A DNA stretch of 38,478 bases from Chiloscyllium plagiosum (lineage: Eukaryota). This document shows, piece by piece, positions 1,062-38,478 of this stretch. The notes beneath the pieces were generated by a model that saw nothing but the letters and a program-made list of their open reading frames with translations, did not search any database and was not told the origin of the DNA. Numbering within the stretch: position 1 is the stretch's first letter; each line of letters starts with the position of its first letter. Both the position numbers and the translations under genes were made by a program. The stretch is from the NCBI RefSeq assembly GCF_004010195.1, contig NC_057718.1:64145110-64183587 (forward strand), written 5' to 3'.

Positions 1062-2337
1062 ATGAGGGCTGAGCAGTAGACGTGATCTATATGGAGCTGA
1101 AAATGTGTTGCTGGAAAAGCGCAGCAGGTCAGGCAGCATCCAGGGAACAGGAGAATCGACGTTTCGGGCATAAGCCTTTCTTCAGGAAACCTCAGTAAGG
1201 CGTTCGACAAGGGTTTCCCATGGGAGACTGGTTAGCAAGGTTAGATCTCATGGAATACAGGGAGAACCAACCATTTGGATACAGAACTGGCTCAAATTTA
1301 GCAGACAGAGGGTGGTGGTGGAGGGTTGTTTTTCAGGTTGGTGGCCTGTGACCAGTGGAGTGCCACAAGGTTCAGTGCTGAGTCGACTACTTTTTGTCAT
1401 TTATATAAATAATTTGGATGTGAGCATAAGAGATATAGTTAGTAAGTTTGCAGATGACACCAAAATTGGAGGTGTAATGGAAGAAGATTACTTCAGATTA
1501 CAATGGGATTTTAATTAGATGGACTAGTGGGCTGAGAAGTGGCAGATGGAGTTTAATTTAGATAAATGCGAGATGCTGCATTTTGGGAACGCAAATCTTA
1601 GCAGGACTTATACACTTAATGGTAAGGTCCTAGGGAGTGTTGCTGAACAAAGAGTGCAGGTTCACAGTTCCTTGAAAGTAGAGCCACAGGTAGATAGGAT
1701 AGTGAAGAAGGCATTTGGTATGCTTTCCTTTATTGGTCAGAGTATTGACTACAGGAGTTGGGAGGTCATGTTATGGCTGTACAGGACATTGGTTAGGGCA
1801 CTTTTGGAATATTGCATGCAATTTTGGTCTCCTTCCTATCGGAAGGGTGTTGTGAAAGTTGAAACAGTTCAGAAAAGATTTCTAAGGATGTTCCAAGGAT
1901 TTGAGCTATAGGGTGAGGTTGTATACCTGGGGCTGTTTTCCCTGGAGCATTGGACGCTGAGGGGTGACCTTATAGAGGTTTATAAAATCATGAGGAGCAT
2001 GGATAGGATAAATAGAGAAAGTCATTTCCCTGGGGTGGATGAGTCCAGAACTAGAGGGCATAGGTTTAGGGTGAGAGGGGAAAAATATAAAAGTGACCTA
2101 GGGGCAATGTTTTCTCACAGAAGGTGGTGCGTCTATGGAATTATCTGTCAGAGGAAGTGGTGGAGGCTGGTACAATTGCAACATTTAAAAGGCATCTGGA
2201 TGGATATATGAATAGGAAGGGTTTGGAGGAGTATGGGCCAGTTGCTGGACAATGGGACTAAATTAGTTTGGGATATCTGGTCGGCATGGACGAGTTGGAC
2301 CGAAGGGTCTGTTTCTGTGCTGTACAACTCTATGACT
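1062..2337 (+). mobile_element. 5'-truncated CR1-type LINE (HER1-like), decayed RT C-terminus and 3' UTR
   Basis: ORFs 1312-1518 (SGVPQGSVL...SKFADDTKIGG) and 1546-1911 (MEFNLDKC...LEYCMQFWSP), with stops and frameshifts; ctctatgact-type 3' end. Confidence 0.93.
1094..1188 (-). mobile_element. Solo PLE pseudo-LTR fragment (family A) with hammerhead core, inserted in the CR1
   Basis: Nearly identical to 8031-8124. Splits the CR1 motif tatatgga|c(c/t)tcagtaaggcgttcgacaag. Minus strand reads CTGAAGA-aaggc-ttat-gccc-GAAA-cgtc. Confidence 0.85.
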
Positions 2338-5580: not shown

Positions 5581-7993
5581 CTGGTACCGTAGTCTCCTCA
5601 ACTGGTCATGGATGAATGAGCCAGCCCTCGTCTGCACTGTCTGCCCACCAGGATGTTTGTAAACTGGTGAGACATGTGTGTGGCTAATAAAACAAAGCAG
5701 GCAGAGCAGTTCTGGACTGACAGCATTTCGACCAGGTGCACAATTCCCCATCAAAGGTGGGCCTGGTACCCAGAGTCCCAGGACGTCCTGGAGTACGTCC
5801 AGCTCGGACAAGTGAAATAATATGAAAAGCAATGCACTTTAGGGGCACAGCTAACAAGGGGACTTTGGGGAAGATAAAACGATAAAACGATAAAACCTGT
5901 GAGGCTTCATGGAGAGATACCCACCAAGAAATTCACCAAAAATGACACTCAATCAATTTCTTGAAAGATTCCATTCGATAATAATGAACAAATAACATGA
6001 GAGCTACACTTCAACAGTGAAATGAGAAGGAGCAGCAAATGTGAAAGAAGTTGTAGTTTTTGAGTGAATTGTTATTGAGTGTTTTTGTCTCCTTTTTTTG
6101 GCTTTCCTCTTTTCTGCTCTATTTCATGTCTGATGGTCACTCAAAACCCAGGAGTGTATAGTGGCGACGCCCTGGGTTTCCCTATTGACAGGTACTGCCC
6201 CTAGCCCCCAATGTAAAGTGCCAGGCTCAAGCTCTGAAACTGTAAGAGTGACACCAAATCCCTCCACTACCCACACCTGCCAACACTTACCTACAGTCTC
6301 ACTCACTCTGCTTGTCCTCTCCAATGATTATACCTTTCATCTTTTATCCTCAACAAATTTCTCTTTTCCTGCTCTCATTCCATTATCCCAGTGTCAATTC
6401 TCTCCCCTCCCTGACATCAGATCAAATCAGCACTGGAATAGTGTGAGGAAATGCCATCTGGCCAGAGGTGGGGGCCTCCTACTCAATCTGGAACGAAGTA
6501 GAGAGGGTCTCAGATTAGACATACATTGATCTGCAATGCCAATGTACAACTCAATGCTACTGTCCAATCTGCATGCTGCCAGTGAATGCAAATACTGTCA
6601 AAACAAAATTGGCAATGCAAATCAGAAAAAAAAACAGTTCCCCAACAAATAAATAACGTTACAAGAAAATGATGCTAAGTGTGGCAGCTTAAAGTGAGGG
6701 CTTACTGTAATTAGGTGGTCAGATTGTTAAAATATCTGAGACATCTCTTACAGAAAGGAAATAGGAAAGACTCAGCCTATTGTAAACTTCAAAGGTAAAA
6801 GTGAATCTTCATGATCTTTTCTTCCTCAGCAGATCACTTTGTCTTCCCCTCCCCCACCCATCCCTCCAACAATCTTCCAACAGCTGTTGGCTGCTCTTTA
6901 AATGATTAGTGTAAAACTTGCCTCCTCGCAGCCCATAAAATTAGAGTGCATCATCATGGGAAGGTGGCAGTATTTTTTGATACGTCTTCTGTTCTCCCTC
7001 TGCCCCCCACTGAGCAGTTAACAATGGCAGCTTGTTTGAAGGTGAGATGTGCACTTTCAGAAAGTGCCCAGTGCCATCTAGGAGGTGGTGTCGGCTTTTA
7101 CTTTAAGCTGCTTTAATGACTCTGTTAATTTTACCATTAGCTCAAAAGTGTTCAAATTAAGTTGCTCCGTGCATTGAGATTGCTTCGGCAATGATCAAAA
7201 GTAAGATTTGAAGGCATTCCTATTTTACATAGCTTTGAAACAATCAGTATTTAAAAGGGAGCTCTACCATTCATTGCAAAAATAACTTAGTTAAAGAGTT
7301 AACGGTGTGGAATATTTGAGCTGCAGTAAAAAAAAACCAGACAGAAACTAGTAAGTGATGTTTGATATGCTTCTGTAGCATTCAACTTGTGGTGCTGAAT
7401 GATAAGAGGATTGCACACTAATATTTGTGATCTTTCCATAAAATGAACTGCACTATAAAATCATCCACACTGACATAAGGAAAATCGGCTGGTGTTTAAA
7501 ATGAGCCTCCCCAGTGAATCTTTTCATGACTGACTGCACGCTCAGCTTCCCCAACTTGTTCTGCTGCCAGGGATTTCAGCAACTGGGTACTGTGACTCAT
7601 TACAACTCTATTGTTGACCTCCTTCCACCCTCTCCAGCTCTGAACTATTTGTTGCAGTTTTTGTTATTTTCATCTGATTGTGAGCTGTGAATGACTGTCT
7701 TTCTTTCTCTCTCTGTTTTGTTACTGGTCCTGCATGTGAAGAAGATTAAACTAATATCAGCTGTCAAACAAAGCACGACTTCCTGTTATGGCAATATATG
7801 CGTACAGAGATTACACTTTTTGTCATTCTAATACTGAATACACATGTGCCTGTGTGCAGGGTTTCATCTCAATCTTTTCAGGATTACCAGGAAAATACAG
7901 ACCTGTAAACAGGTTAATGTTTTTAGAACTGCTAGCTATAGTTCCTTCAATAGACCTATATTCTCACCTTCAGTACACCTGCTTTTGATTTAC

Positions 7994-8212
7994 TGAGGAG
8001 AAAGTGAGGTCTGCAGACGCTGGAGATCAGAGCTGAAAATGTGTTGCTGGAAAAGCGCAGCAGGTCAGGCAGCATCCAGGGAACAGGAGAATCGACGTTT
8101 CGGGCATAAGCCCTTCTTCAGGAATGAAGAAGGGCTTATGCCCGAAACGTCGATTCTCCTGATCCCTGGATGCTGCCTGACCTGCTGCGCTTTTCCAGCA
8201 ACACATTTTCAG
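7994..8212. mobile_element. Fold-back PLE terminal-repeat insertion (family A) with two head-to-head hammerhead cores
   Basis: 90-bp inverted arms 8031-8120 and 8125-8214 (1 mismatch, 4-nt loop ggaa), unpaired tail 7995-8030, exact 15-bp TSD ctgcttttgatttac (7979-7993, 8213-8227). Confidence 0.92.
8090..8126 (-). ncRNA. Minimal type I hammerhead ribozyme motif
   Basis: Minus strand cattc-CTGAAGA-a-GGGC-ttat-GCCC-GAAA-C-GTC-gatt: intact core, 4-bp stem II, palindromic ACGT stem III, GUC cleavage triplet. Stem I is weak. Confidence 0.75.
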
Positions 8213-8629
8213 CTGCTTTTGATTTACATCTATCAATATTCAAACAAAATCTTTGCTGTCTCTGTTCAAACACAATCAGAAGGACAGTCACCACATTGGT
8301 CAGAGGCCAACTCGAATTTTCCAGTCATCCTCTGGGAACTCAGTCACGGCTGCCTAGGGATGACCCAGCTAGCAGACTGGGTGGGCCAAGACTCCTGGAT
8401 CAGTTGCATGCCTAGTCGCCCCAGACCTATCTAGCCCCATCTGCAGCCCAGGCTACTCGGTGGAGAGATATAGCGGGATGGGGGAGCTGTAGCCATTTTA
8501 ATTTCAAAAGTATTCAGGGGTCACCTCAAGATGCAGGCTGCAATTCCTTCAGTCCAAAAGGCTCCTAATATCAAGAGCCTACCCACTGTTCCTAACTGGA
8601 CTATGACTATGCCCTCTGAACACTAAATA

Positions 8630-8790
8630 AAGACCAAAGTAAGTGCGGATGCTGGAAATCAGAAACAAAAGCAGAAATTGCTGCAAAAGCTCCTTGTTCT
8701 GAGGAAGGGTTGCTGGTCCCGAAACATTAACTCTGATTTCTCTTCATAGATGCTAGCAAACCTGCTGAGCTTTTCCAGAAATTTATGTTC
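8630..8790 (+). mobile_element. Older PLE terminal-repeat insertion (family C) with short inverted arm
   Basis: Inverted arms 8672-8692 and 8767-8787, upstream tail containing gatgctggaaatcag, and a degenerate core CTGAGGA-aggg...ccc-GAAA-catt (8699-8728). Confidence 0.7.
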
Positions 8791-25200: not shown

Positions 25201-25629
25201 GAGATTGACTGTTTTCGGCTGTTCCAGTGTTCAACACTCTGTTGAGGATGCTTAGTCACATACCCAACTATAGTCCATTCCACAGTGCTCACAGTAATTC
25301 TGGTGCTTTGTAGTCATTGCTTTTTGTGACTATCAGCAAGTGTCTCAAAGAGGGCATCACATCTGAACTCGAGCCTTCGTCCAACATCCCCACACTCAAA
25401 ACACACCCATATCCGTACAAAACATATCCACATCCACACAGAACACATATGTATATACACAAACACACACATAAAATACATACACTACAAGAGTATACAG
25501 GAAAGCCACACACACAGACCAAATCCTAAACTATGAAAGTAACCACCCCAACACACACAAACGAAGCTGCATCAGGACACTATTCAAAAGGGCCACAACA
25601 CACTGCAGTACACCAGAACTGCAAAAAGA

Positions 25630-26051
25630 NNNNNNNNNNNNNNNNNNNNNNNNNNNNNNNNNNNNNNNNNNNNNNNNNNNNNNNNNNNNNNNNNNNNNNN
25701 NNNNNNNNNNNNNNNNNNNNNNNNNNNNNNNNNNNNNNNNNNNNNNNNNNNNNNNNNNNNNNNNNNNNNNNNNNNNNNNNNNNNNNNNNNNNNNNNNNNN
25801 NNNNNNNNNNNNNNNNNNNNNNNNNNNNNNNNNNNNNNNNNNNNNNNNNNNNNNNNNNNNNNNNNNNNNNNNNNNNNNNNNNNNNNNNNNNNNNNNNNNN
25901 NNNNNNNNNNNNNNNNNNNNNNNNNNNNNNNNNNNNNNNNNNNNNNNNNNNNNNNNNNNNNNNNNNNNNNNNNNNNNNNNNNNNNNNNNNNNNNNNNNNN
26001 NNNNNNNNNNNNNNNNNNNNNNNNNNNNNNNNNNNNNNNNNNNNNNNNNNN
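25630..26051. other. Assembly gap (422 N)
   Basis: Run of N. Confidence 1.
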
Positions 26052-26304
26052 TTTTTGCCTTACTTATTTTATTCTTAAGTATACTATTCTTGCCTTTATA
26101 CTCGAAGGATGTTTGTGATTTTTTGGATTGGAATAAATGCAAAATATTACATCTTGGTAAAACAAACAAGGGCAGGACTTACACTGATTAAAGGTTGGGC
26201 CTCGGATAGTGATATGGAACAAAGAGACCGAGGGGTTCTGGTCTTTGAAGTATGTGTCACATGCAGACAGGGTGGTTCAGAAGGGGTTTAGCACATTTGC
26301 CTTC

Positions 26305-26602
26305 TGGGACAACACTACTATCATAGGGCAAGCCAGACAGAGAACAGCCAGGGAATTCCTAGAGGCATGGCATTCATCCACAAACTCCATCAACAAACAC
26401 ATCGACCTGGACCCAATATACCAACCACTACAGCGGTCGGCTGAAACTGACAACCGGAGGCGGCAGGGACAGATCACTATAAACACCGGAGGAAACATCA
26501 ACGAAGCGCTTCGCAGGAGGCTCCCAAGCACTGATGATGTCGCCTAGCCAGGGGACGAAACGTTTGCAACAAAGACTTCCAGCTCGGCGAACAGAACCAC
26601 AA
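26305..26602 (+). mobile_element. 3' end of a Penelope/Poseidon-type retroelement (endonuclease C-terminus plus pLTR)
   Basis: In-frame WDNTTIIGQARQRTAREFLEAWHSSTNSINKHIDLDPIYQPL followed by a hammerhead motif. Fused to an upstream CR1 fragment (~26130-26304). Confidence 0.8.
26528..26567 (+). ncRNA. Minimal type I hammerhead ribozyme motif
   Basis: GCA-CTGATGA-t-GTCgCCT-agcc-AGGgGAC-GAAA-C-GTT-TGC: stem I GCA/TGC, stem II 6 of 7 paired, palindromic stem III, GUU triplet. Confidence 0.8.
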
Positions 26603-27206
26603 CATACATACACTCAGATATGCACAAAACACACAATGTACGGGGGGGGGGGGAGGGAAGTCTTGGTGGAGGAGGAAGACATCAGAATTATCAGAACAAT
26701 TGGAGACAGACAAACTGACAGAATGTAATGGAACTTGTACAGGGCGCAGGATACTGAGGAAGTGTAATCAAAAAAGCTTTGGGCCTCTTTCGCCTCATAC
26801 TGAATATTTGTTGATTGCCTATTTTTGTGACCCTTAATATCTGAAACTAACAGAAACTGTTTATTTTCAGGCATCAAAAGAGAACAAGCGTGAAATGAAA
26901 GAGTCAGGCCGGATAGCTTTGTGGTAACGTGAACTGATGCTGCTGAAGAGACAGTGGTTTGAGGAATGATAGCTGTAATCGTGGCTGCATCAGACCCAAG
27001 AATGAAATCACTTTTGAAATCCACGAGGCAGGAGTTGGAGTTGATACAGTGGTTAAAGAAGTGAGTTTTAGTAGATGCCTGAGAAGGGAAATAAATAGCA
27101 ATGAAAATGACAAAGAGATAAATATAAATTTAATTGGAGAGAGGTGCAGAACTTAGTCAACGTGAACATTCCTGGAAGAGAAGTGGCAAACAACTGGACA
27201 CCAGTC

Positions 27207-27430
27207 CAAAAGTAAAATACTCTTCTGGATTGCTGGAAATTGGAAATGAAAACAGAACATGCTTGGCAGAAACTGTGGAGAAAGAAACAGGGTTGATGTT
27301 TCAGGCCTTTCATCAGAGCTAGGAATAAACAACTCCTCAGTAGGTGAATTGTGGGATAGTAAGGAAAGAACAAAACAGAAGGTCTGTAATAGGGCTGAAT
27401 ACAGGAGACAAATGACAAACCATTGATGGA
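27207..27430 (-). mobile_element. Old PLE pseudo-LTR fragment with degenerate hammerhead core
   Basis: Minus strand ctCTGATGAaaggcctGAAAcatc (27318-27295) followed by a ...gttttcatttccaatttccagcaatc end resembling 985-1015. Confidence 0.6.
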
Positions 27431-29635: not shown

Positions 29636-30050
29636 AATGTAGAAACAGAATCAGACATTAAGTCCATTGAGTCTGCTCCACAGTTGAATGAGATCATAGC
29701 TGATTTGATAATCCTCCATTCCACTTTCCTGCCTTTCCTCATAAGCCTTGTTTTCTTACTGATTAAAGTTGTCTATCTTAGCCTTAATGAACAGCTTTAA
29801 TAATTCTTAGTGGTAAAGTATTCCACACATTCACAACCCTTTAAGAGAAGCAATCCTCCTCAAAGTTATCTTAAATGGGCATGTCCTTATTCTAAGATTA
29901 TGCCTCTGATCCGAGACTCTCCCCTAAAGGGAAATGAATTGTCAGTATCTACTCTGCAAAGTCACCCTAGAATCTTACATGCTTCAATGCTTACATGCTT
30001 CACCTCTCACTCTTCAAAACTCCAATTGGTACATGCCCAACCTACCAAAC
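29636..30050 (-). mobile_element. Old CR1-like LINE 3' end
   Basis: gagtctgctccac...aatgagatcatagctgat...ccactttcctgcc; similar to 14706-15000 and 21230-21550. Confidence 0.6.
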
Positions 30051-30391
30051 CACTTCTGATAGGGCTGTATTATCATATTGCCTTATGTAAAATTGTAATA
30101 ATGCGATGGCCTCTCTCTAATTGTATTCAGTACAACTAAAGTTTCCACAAACTTTTGACTCTCCCCTAAAGGGAAATGAACTGTCAGTATCTACTCTGCA
30201 AAGTCACCCTAGAATCTTACATGCTTCAATATAGTCACCTCTCACTCTTCAAAACTCCAATTGGTACATGCCCAACCTACCAAAACACTTCTGATAGGGC
30301 TGTATTATCATATTGCCTTATGTAAAATTGTAATAATGCGATGGCCTCTCTCTAATTGTATTCAGTACAACTAAAGTTTCCACAAACTTTT
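29915..30391. repeat. Tandem direct duplication (242 bp and 235 bp)
   Basis: Copy 1 is 29915-30156 and copy 2 is 30157-30391. They differ by two substitutions and one complex indel. Confidence 0.97.
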
Positions 30392-31794: not shown

Positions 31795-32297
31795 AGCGGC
31801 ACGTTGGCTCAGTGGTTAGCACTGCTACCCTCACAGTGCCAGGGACCTGGCTTTGATACCAGCTTTGGACGCTCTAGTTTCCTCCCACAGTGCAAAGATG
31901 TGCAGGTTTTGTGAATTGGCCACTCTAAATTGTCCCGTAAAGTCTAGAATGTGCAGATTAGTTTGGTTAGCCATGGTAAATATGGGGATAGGGTGGGATG
32001 CTCTTCAGAGGGTCAGTGCAGGCTCGATGGGCTCAATGACTTCTTTGAGGAGAAAGTGAGGTCTGCAGATGCTGGAGATCACAGATGGAAATGTGTTGCT
32101 GGAAAAGCGCAGCAGGTCAGGCAGCATCTAGGGAACAGGAGAATCGACGTTTCGGGCATTAGCCCTTCCTGAAGAAGGGCTAATGCCCGAAACGTCGATT
32201 CTCCTGTTCCCTAGATGCTGCCTGACCTGCTGCACTTTTCCAGCAACACATTTCCATCAATGACTTCCTTCCACACTGTAGGGATTCTATGATTCTA
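31795..32297 (+). mobile_element. HE1-like SINE (internally deleted) interrupted by a fold-back element
   Basis: Head gcggcacgttggctcagtggttagcactgct; tail ccacactgtagggattctatgattcta. Confidence 0.85.
32047..32256. mobile_element. Fold-back PLE terminal-repeat insertion (family A variant) with hammerhead core
   Basis: 85-bp inverted arms 32084-32168 and 32174-32258 (1 mismatch), tail 32047-32083, TSD tcaatgacttc (32033-32043, 32257-32267). Intact plus-strand core CTGAAGA-a-GGGC-taat-GCCC-GAAA-CGTC (32169-32196). Confidence 0.92.
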
Positions 32298-35984: not shown

Positions 35985-36760
35985 CCTGACATTCAGTGAT
36001 ATTATCAACACTGAATACCCCGGGATGACTTTGGACCAGAAACTGAACTGGATGAACTTGTAGCACGTGGCTAGAAAAGCAGGTCTGAGGCTGGAAATTC
36101 TATCTTGTGTAAATCACCTCCAACTTCTCCAAAAGCCTTCCTACCATCCACAAAGGCACAAGTAAGGAGTCTGAATGAACACTTAACACTTACCTGGATA
36201 AGTGTAGTGCCAACAACACTCAAGAAACTCAGCACCATTAAGAACAAAGCAGTCATCTTGATAGACAGAAAGTGAGGGCTGCAGATGCTGGAGATCAGGG
36301 CTGAAGAAGGGCTTATGCCCGAAACGTCAATTCTCCTGTTCCTTGGATGCTGCCTGACCTGCTGCGCTTTTCTAGCAACACATTTTCAGCATCTTGATAG
36401 ACAGGCCTTCTTCAGAATTCATTCAGTCTTCCTTTAGTGCACCTTTAGTATGTACCATCTATAAAGATTTACTGCAGCACTCAGCACTTTTTGAGCCTCC
36501 AGACTACCAGCTAGAAAAACATGAGCAGTAGCTGCACCTGAAAAACATCAACTCCTTTAAGTTCTTGTCCAACTATCACCCCAACCCAACTTAGAACTAT
36601 ATAATTGCTCCTTCACTATTGCTGGGTCAAAATCCTGACATTTCCTTTCTAATAGCACTTAGAAAGGACTGCACCAATTCAAAAAAGCAGCTTATCACCA
36701 CTCCTCAAGGGCAAATAACATTGGAGATGGCAATGATGCCCACATGCTAGGAATGACTAA
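35985..36760 (+). mobile_element. Decayed LINE 3' region (CR1/L2 group) interrupted by a PLE repeat
   Basis: gaccagaaactgaactgga..., ccaacaacactcaagaaactc...caccat...acaaagcag; reverse-complement similarity to 24400-24720. Confidence 0.65.
36269..36389 (+). mobile_element. Minimal PLE terminal-repeat insertion (family A): inverted tail plus one hammerhead-bearing arm
   Basis: Exact 15-bp TSD catcttgatagacag (36254-36268, 36390-36404). Core CTGAAGA-a-GGGC-ttat-GCCC-GAAA-CGTC at 36301-36328. Confidence 0.9.
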
Positions 36761-38307: not shown

Positions 38308-38478
38308 GAGCTGAAAATGTGTTGCCGGAAAAGCGCAGCAGGTCAGGCAGCATCCAAAGAACAGGAGAATCGACGTTTCGGGCATAAGCCCTTCTTCAGG
38401 AATGAGGAAAGTGTGTCCAGCAGGCTAAGATAAAAGATAGGGAGGAGGGACTTGGGGGAGGGGCGTTGGAATTGCGAT
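38308..38478 (-). mobile_element. 3' end of a longer family A PLE pseudo-LTR, running off the window
   Basis: Matches 8030-8126, then continues with sequence absent from the other copies (aggaaagtgtgtccagcagg...). Intact minus-strand hammerhead core at ~38371-38399. Confidence 0.88.

Follow-up and report, generated by a model that had tools for sequence, protein, structure and literature searches.

We analyzed a 38,478-nucleotide stretch of the Chiloscyllium plagiosum genome (contig NC_057718.1; hereafter, the window) in which positions 7979..8227 hold a short palindromic insertion without an open reading frame (ORF). The insertion derives from the end module, or pseudo-long terminal repeat (pLTR), of a Neptune-type Penelope-like element (PLE), a retrotransposon. 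Its two arms (8031-8120 and 8125-8214; 90 nt each) are 99% complementary, with an A/T pair at 8083 as the sole mismatch and a 4-nt GGAA loop between them. The predicted RNA fold (-201 kcal/mol, z = -25.9) was equaled by 0/200 shuffled sequences. A 15-nt target-site duplication (TSD) flanks the insertion on the plus strand, its left copy at 7979..7993 being identical to the right copy at 8213..8227; because the first 2 nt of the right copy also fit the arm end, the real duplication is 13-15 nt. Between the left TSD copy and the adjoining arm lies a one-sided Penelope tail (7994..8030, minus strand; 37 nt, 36 of them matching the parent element). With positions counted on the sense strand of the arm and hammerhead nucleotide C3 set to 0, the tail spans +91 to +126, a region that in the parent leads on into the 5' end of the ORF.

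The arms differ in extent. The long arm (8031..8127, minus strand) covers pLTR positions -6 to +90 and matches the parent at 96% over positions -10..+126, whereas the short arm (8125..8214, plus strand) covers +1 to +90, has no tail, and carries a hammerhead from which C3 and the 5' strand of stem I are missing. They disagree at one polymorphic site. Sequence and the overlap of the arm-to-parent matches place the junction at 8125..8127, a TGA microhomology of 3 nt common to both arms. We infer that the long arm with its tail is a complementary DNA (cDNA) begun at an outer site (+126) and carried to the RNA 5' end, and that the short arm is a cDNA begun at an inner site (+90).

A minimal type I hammerhead ribozyme (min-HHR) lies on the minus strand at 8090..8125, as judged by motif inspection against the description in PMC4209133. 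It reads AUUC-CUGAAGA-A-GGGC-UUAU-GCCC-GAAA-C-GUC, with A(-4) at 8125, C3 at 8121, and a predicted cut after the C at 8094. As in the metazoan PLE min-HHRs described there, it has the CUGANGA and GAAA core boxes, an extra nucleotide (9/10.1) before stem II, a G10.1-C11.1 pair, a palindromic stem III (15.2-16.2; here, self-complementary ACGU) without loop 3, an NUH cleavage triplet, and a weak helix I. Stem I comprises only three Watson-Crick pairs plus U-U (4-5 bp in the description), and stem II has 4 bp, whereas the published examples have a helix II of 7-8 bp; the ribozyme here is a predicted one. On the plus strand, A replaces C3 at 8124 and the 5' strand of stem I is gone. An Rfam scan of 7700-8500 matched no hammerhead model at E <= 10, so the ribozyme call is one of motif inspection; the top matches were microRNA (miRNA) hairpin models below their gathering scores, generic matches to a hairpin. 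Since the cores occupy opposite strands, no single transcript would contain both hammerheads in sense orientation; the fold predicted for a read-through RNA is a 90-bp hairpin that buries the ribozyme. When two 45-nt units were cofolded, the hammerhead dimer was not the minimum-energy form, a weak test given that such folds are poorly modeled. An earlier sequence-only reading of this locus had described a near-perfect 90-bp palindrome, a ~36-nt one-sided tail, an exact 15-bp TSD, an intact minus-strand core, and a plus-strand core that had lost C3, all of which stand. Its description of two opposed hammerhead units holds in that both cores are present, but only the minus-strand core is intact and each strand has one sense core; the Rfam search it had proposed lent the ribozyme no support.

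Parent element and family size

In longer copies (individual loci carry L numbers below), a pyrimidine-rich 3' untranslated region (UTR) lies upstream of the arm and is preceded in turn by a GIY-YIG endonuclease, whose motifs have two cysteines between them and which carries a CX4CxxC linker. On the downstream side, the sequence leads past the tail to a long ORF that begins ~35 nt beyond it. Copy L187, which is frameshifted, shows the order inverted arm, ORF start, reverse transcriptase (RT), endonuclease start, and pLTR. Its RT region matches PF00078 at E = 1.7e-6 (28.3 bits, slightly below the 29.6 cut-off), and the endonuclease of long copies matches PF01541 at E = 2.5e-4 and 4.7e-4, again slightly below the cut-off. 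The scores are significant, and frameshifts occur in the long copies that were read. The endonuclease motif IYCICCTRCGLLYIG of L072 is as in PMC8557442, and the linker between RT and endonuclease (CNRKKCKTC in L072, CNRRRCNTC in L187) follows the CX2-5CxxC pattern common to Neptune, Nematis, and Naiad; the C-terminal position of the endonuclease rules out Naiad. By the domain criteria of PMC8557442, the sequence identifies the parent as a C-terminal-endonuclease PLE with a Neptune/Nematis linker, and we provisionally classify it on this basis as a Neptune-type PLE. The family also has a pLTR with a hammerhead, a 30-40-nt one-sided tail, an inverted partner, and a variable TSD, in keeping with the structure given as typical of endonuclease-positive PLEs (inverted pLTR, 30-40-bp tail at one end, and TSD; PMC3846280, PMC8557442).

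That the arm runs on into GIY-YIG and RT coding sequence supports the retro-derived, Penelope-like origin that the sequence-only reading had proposed, and the insertion is young, as it had also suggested. That reading had further held that the element resembles a miniature inverted-repeat transposable element (MITE) only in appearance. We agree and reject a DNA-transposon MITE: a 36-nt tail extends beyond the repeat on one side, and TSDs of 12-19 nt have no fixed length.

The family is abundant. Exact-pattern matching, used for all tail counts, retrieved 55,359 genome-wide matches to a 33-mer of the tail in the 3.56-Gb genome, and head-to-head junctions numbered 12,150. The samples described below come from the initial 4-13 Mb of one contig and required exact motif matches. 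The first 90 tail matches on that contig were reduced to 87 by removing three duplicates (L042 and L207, in each of which an insertion already counted was seen from its other side, and L195, a local duplicate of L061). These 87 tail-bearing copies comprised 40 short palindromes, 28 solo short arms, 8 long copies, 2 palindromes with one long arm, 2 two-tailed copies, and 7 copies ending in gaps. Scaled up from 4 Mb, this suggests ~25,000 short palindromes genome-wide.

Ends of the insertions

Outer ends and junctions were read in 50 consecutive loci picked by junction only; a whole-element DNA search (30 loci) was skewed to similar junctions and was kept out of the junction statistics. The 3' ends are bimodal, near +90 and near +126. 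One tail end was paired with one short end in 46 of the 50 copies, five of which read slightly long through chance matches (+131/132 or +99) and one of which abuts a gap; one copy had two tails, none had two short ends, and three had one arm cut short. Tail and short ends are thus paired in 46/47 informative copies (binomial p = 3e-13). TSDs of 12-19 nt (median 15) were present in 44/49 copies, and TSDs of at least 12 nt in 33/40 tail-selected palindromes; in a control, the TSD caller returned any match in 23/443 random pairs. The same end asymmetry was seen in 10 long-armed pairs with unlike inner ends and in L187 (L086, which looked like two insertions, was left out), with L190, whose two short ends are separated by a 2.2-kb gap, as the exception. 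Because long-armed pairs with differing inner ends share the asymmetry, it is a property of the insertion reaction rather than of a master copy. What the genomic copies add is that the two ends of a single insertion nearly always use different start sites.

The two arms of a copy agreed at 165/181 diagnostic sites, compared with 62% in permutations, and arm divergence was 4.8% within copies and 7.9% between them. This concordance argues that both arms come from one source, and an origin from two different source loci is mostly ruled out. Where one arm is trimmed, it may be the tail arm or the short arm, about equally often.

The inner (5') ends are concentrated at one position. Tallied from BLAST ends (~3 nt uncertainty; 7 gap-interrupted loci excluded), the 5' ends of 124 arms included 71 at -8..+2, 21 at +3..+12, none at -30..-9, 8 at +23..+33, and 10 further upstream. 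Base-level inspection, in which biased sets were included, put the boundary at -3 to -6, with -4 commonest. Residue A(-4) stands 4 nt ahead of the hammerhead core and 31 nt ahead of the ribozyme cut site. Exact matches starting at A(-4) numbered 53,979, of which 9,328 retained the next 11 parent bases upstream, a drop owed partly, not wholly, to divergence and other subfamilies. Of the "loose ends before" sites listed at the top in three independent public runs, A(-4) was the only one upstream of the tail that all three had in common (163, 72, and 200 records). In direct-tandem copies, the last unit restarts at ~-4, straight after ORF-start sequence of variable length, as expected for a run-off cDNA that jumped to another RNA end.

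Outside element context, the base preceding A(-4) was G in 28, A in 10, and T in 7 of 45 cases (p = 6e-7 versus composition; counted by hand over 100 listed matches, with C excluded by the search pattern). A lone G separates the TSD from the element in L166 and L186 and also occurs at two joints in the public runs. The context of A(-4), TCATTCC, presumably fits the initiator consensus. An internal promoter with an initiator is described for Drosophila Penelope (PMC2377424), and PMC4859970 treats untemplated G at the 5' end of LINE-1 as the signature of a cap. Together, the 5'-end pile-up, the initiator-like A, and the excess of a preceding G point to a likely capped RNA start at about -4.

Very short direct tandems number 212 genome-wide. 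In the first 100, the first units end mostly at +30, +38, and +45, and these tandems may have arisen where new insertions hit earlier copies at preferred nick sites.

Origin of the palindromes

We consider it probable that the palindrome was made in one event, in which nicks staggered between the two strands each primed a cDNA, one per start site, both cDNAs ran off the 5' end of the RNA, and their ends were trimmed and joined by microhomology. In this scheme, a capped mRNA would begin at about A(-4), placing the hammerhead and both RT start sites within its first 130 nt, before the ORF. The RT-endonuclease, probably a dimer, would nick both strands ~14-15 bp apart, and each nick would prime one cDNA, one from +126 and the other from +90 of the same or a sister RNA. 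Like retroviral strong-stop DNA, each cDNA would then extend to the 5' end of its RNA and stop there, in many cases after copying the cap. Were neither to jump to another template, the ends would be trimmed and joined by microhomology into a palindrome; were one to jump, tandem or long-armed copies would result. The hammerhead would be a passenger whose cut site does not set the ends. Biochemical work on PAc, the Poseidon element of Anolis carolinensis (PMC11167929), describes much the same ingredients: a protein, predicted to be a dimer, that nicks both target strands and extends them, begins synthesis at two internal sites bounding the tail, and has no need for hammerhead cleavage. Cleavage is probably irrelevant to the origin of the palindrome here as well, matching the mutants reported there.

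Of the competing ideas, one holds that short single-arm master RNAs feed the same reaction, which we regard as unlikely. A unit from -4 to +126 would carry the initiator, the hammerhead, and both start sites. Short arms are about 9 times as numerous as long ones, the TC-type subfamily tends toward short arms (p = 0.054), and nine of the 28 solo short arms among the 87 tail-bearing copies have a TSD of at least 12 nt. Against such masters, all main subfamilies, that of the palindrome included, have long members reaching the 3' UTR or the endonuclease (9 listed), and the anole protein requires RNA past the outer start site, namely the first 172 nt of the ORF (PMC11167929); if this requirement holds for the present family too, short copies would not supply it. 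Since short units in tandem copies restart directly after ORF-start sequence, the template is better explained as a full mRNA. A second idea is that entire palindromes are copied as units from a few masters, making up a non-autonomous family of retrozyme-like or fold-back kind. Masters would likewise predict fixed ends, concordant arms, and recurrent junction classes, and the commonest junction class does keep one orientation to the tail in 7/8 copies. However, the 50 loci held 36 distinct junction strings, or 28 classes with subfamily bases ignored; the recurrent classes are those with microhomology, each is shared by 2-4 subfamily haplotypes, and four of the five most frequent ones are found both ways round relative to the tail. 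The TGA-overlap class to which the window copy belongs accounts for 3/50, all oriented opposite to it. A shared complex junction was considered as the mark of an amplified palindromic master and rejected: a distinctive inserted junction occurs just twice genome-wide, in L206 and L212, which lie 114 kb from each other. Long-armed copies have the same ends as the palindromes, the RNA of a palindrome is predicted to hide its hammerhead in the hairpin, and retrozymes are defined in 10.64898/2026.07.22.740005 as head-to-tail repeats. Copying as a unit is thus largely refuted and very improbable, and the separately replicating, retrozyme-like family raised as a possibility by the sequence-only reading is not what the junctions describe. 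That reading had reserved the label of truncation by-product for the case in which every copy has a unique inversion point. The inversion points are indeed diverse, but the 5' ends are not random, being piled at one position; this inversion-point test cannot discriminate against short single-arm master RNAs.

The pair L206 and L212 merits a separate remark, in that the two share the same odd insert with unlike outer ends (two tails without a TSD in one, a tail and a short end with a TSD in the other). Local conversion or duplication is likely because only these two copies exist.

In a proposal made for rotifer elements (PMC3846280), a single cDNA folds back on its own 3' end and self-primes the second arm, which would account for arm concordance and junction microhomologies and perhaps for some junction inserts. 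Such folding requires a complete tail arm, yet copies with a trimmed tail arm and an intact short arm are about as frequent as the converse, and the stop of the second arm at +90, an end also seen in solo and tandem copies, is left unexplained. Because either arm can be the trimmed one, fold-back is disfavored, and in its pure form it is ruled out for copies with a trimmed tail arm; we hold it to be quite improbable as a general origin. That hammerhead self-cleavage sets the template ends strikes us as extremely improbable. Consistent with cleavage, 8/124 arms start at +23..+33 and one joint in the public runs goes from the cut site (+27) back to -4, but most 5' ends lie ~30 nt upstream of the cut. 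A cleavage-made RNA 3' end as the donor in template jumps is unsupported as well, since by hand count only 3-4 clear cases (and ~9 ambiguous ones) among the first 100 short-tandem joints fall at +27.

Several observations weigh against the twin run-off origin or its details. Junction class is weakly, not significantly, tied to subfamily (17 same-haplotype pairs versus 11.6 expected, p = 0.09), and the subfamily of the window palindrome makes up 41/89 short arms versus 3/16 long arms (p = 0.054). In PMC11167929, start-site use was equal on both strands in vitro, a bulk result in which one-each coupling was not shown. The samples favor young copies because exact motif matches were needed. Regarding the RNA start, many ends reach -5 or -6, so the start is not tied to one base, and the G before A(-4) could be an untemplated addition by the RT that involves no cap. 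A G lies inside the TSD in 5/30 loci checked, two being near-identical neighbors, perhaps because a C at the cDNA terminus paired with the target. A single-cell run (2,734 reads, both strands) gave no pile of molecule starts and a second run gave 0 reads, neither of which bears on transcription. A minor share of cleaved templates is possible given the arms that begin near the cut.

A broader version of twin run-off is more tentative, and we rate it at somewhat less than an even chance. PLEs in general would integrate by obligatory coupled twin priming, in which a dimer on one RNA uses two fixed sites 36 nt apart, one per nick and both close to the capped mRNA's 5' end, and the first product is always a strong-stop cDNA of the retroviral kind. 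If so, template jumps would build pseudo-LTR tandems, the absence of a jump would leave tens of thousands of palindromes, and a single rule would cover the tail, the inverted pLTR, and partial tandems.

Relation to known systems and other copies

An inverted pLTR with tail and TSD is already published, and opposite-strand hammerhead pairs were noted in 2014; those of Schistosoma lie 100-700 bp apart (PMC4209133), whereas the opposed cores here are a few bases apart. The palindrome is real but represents a variant product within a known class rather than a new family, and its interest is mainly as mechanistic evidence. It shares with typical Penelope structures, as given in the sources cited above, the head-to-head inverted pLTR, the one-sided tail, the variable TSD, the pLTR hammerhead, and a parent with RT and C-terminal GIY-YIG. 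It differs in being a palindrome without ORF or internal segment, in that both arms stop at a fixed point just upstream of the hammerhead core, in a TSD of ~15 bp versus 8-10 bp in rotifer examples, and in that this minimal form makes up about half of the tail-bearing copies. Relative to PAc, the parent is of Neptune type and its long ORF begins past the tail, not within the hammerhead; the one-site-per-end coupling and the run-off drawn here from genomic copies are not stated in the main text of PMC11167929. Non-LTR retrozymes (10.64898/2026.07.22.740005; PMC7229834) are likewise ORF-less, hammerhead-bearing, and pLTR-derived, but those described in 10.64898/2026.07.22.740005 consist of head-to-tail units with at least 2 hammerheads per strand, in contrast to the head-to-head layout, single sense core per strand, and TSD seen here. 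No head-to-tail tandem repeat was found at the palindrome site, and a non-LTR retrozyme was accordingly rejected.

In LINE-1 twin priming, reportedly described by Ostertag and Kazazian in 2001, both target strands are said to prime cDNA, and the products to meet head-to-head and join with small indels, much as proposed here. The second LINE-1 primer is said to copy a more 5' part of the RNA, giving no mutual duplication, whereas the two arms here are copies of one and the same 90-nt stretch, begun at fixed sites. In the literature searched, which did not include Repbase and several key papers, we found neither ORF-less run-off palindromes as a main PLE product, nor a strong-stop/twin-priming model, nor one-site-per-end coupling.

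The formation of PLE tandem and inverted structures is called undefined in PMC8557442, and later steps of the reaction are given as unvalidated in PMC11167929. The family is a large natural record of the PLE reaction, with one start per end, a stagger of ~15 bp, and a fixed 5' boundary off the ribozyme cut. A twin run-off origin, if true, would explain how PLEs acquire their puzzling inverted ends. The family is also prone to mis-annotation as a MITE, an miRNA precursor, or a retrozyme. Host transcripts that read through these copies could yield double-stranded RNA from at least 12,000 long hairpins.

Five family copies lie within the window. Besides the palindrome, these are a second head-to-head copy of a different subfamily and junction (32046..32256; TSD-like repeat of ~11 nt), a head-to-head copy whose tail arm is cut down to the tail only (36267..36390; TSD ATCTTGATAGAC(AG)), a solo short arm (1094..1188, minus strand; -3 to +91), and the left arm (+91 end) of a long-armed copy, L031, that runs past the window (38308..38478, minus strand). 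The solo arm sits within a CR1-like RT fragment, one of the CR1-like LINE fragments present in the window, and has no TSD, as is the case for 19/28 solo arms in the sample (no TSD of at least 12 nt). The partner arm of L031 ends in a tail ~1.85 kb away, with an assembly gap between. Gaps are frequent between the arms of long-armed inverted copies (L031, L063, L067, L079, L083, L090, and L189-L193), which argues that full-length elements are under-assembled in this genome.

Diverged, older relatives of the arm module occur at 8640-8790, 900-1020, and ~27290-27340. The head-to-head habit looks old because 8640-8790 shows the same layout, its right arm starting at the hammerhead core. A sister-subfamily palindrome in L031 (2138-2370) has a CTGATGA core, a TTTT loop, a distinct tail, a 14-bp TSD, and a junction at the core. 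On the minus strand of the window palindrome (7995-8071), the arm opens a short reading frame (MLPDLLRFSSNTF...) that crosses the tail and stops ahead of the long ORF in L073; it may be an upstream ORF and is likely to give rise to spurious gene models.

Elsewhere in the window, 25475-26606 (plus strand) holds the remnant of a second, unrelated-looking family that spans an assembly gap and that we take to be Penelope-like from its motifs. It retains an RT C-terminal motif and an endonuclease-like C-terminus, along with a minimal hammerhead of its own, whose stem II has 7 bp (CTGATGA at 26531); a Pfam search of the remnant gave no relevant match. A tandem duplication of 235 bp, 95% identical, lies at 29915-30391.

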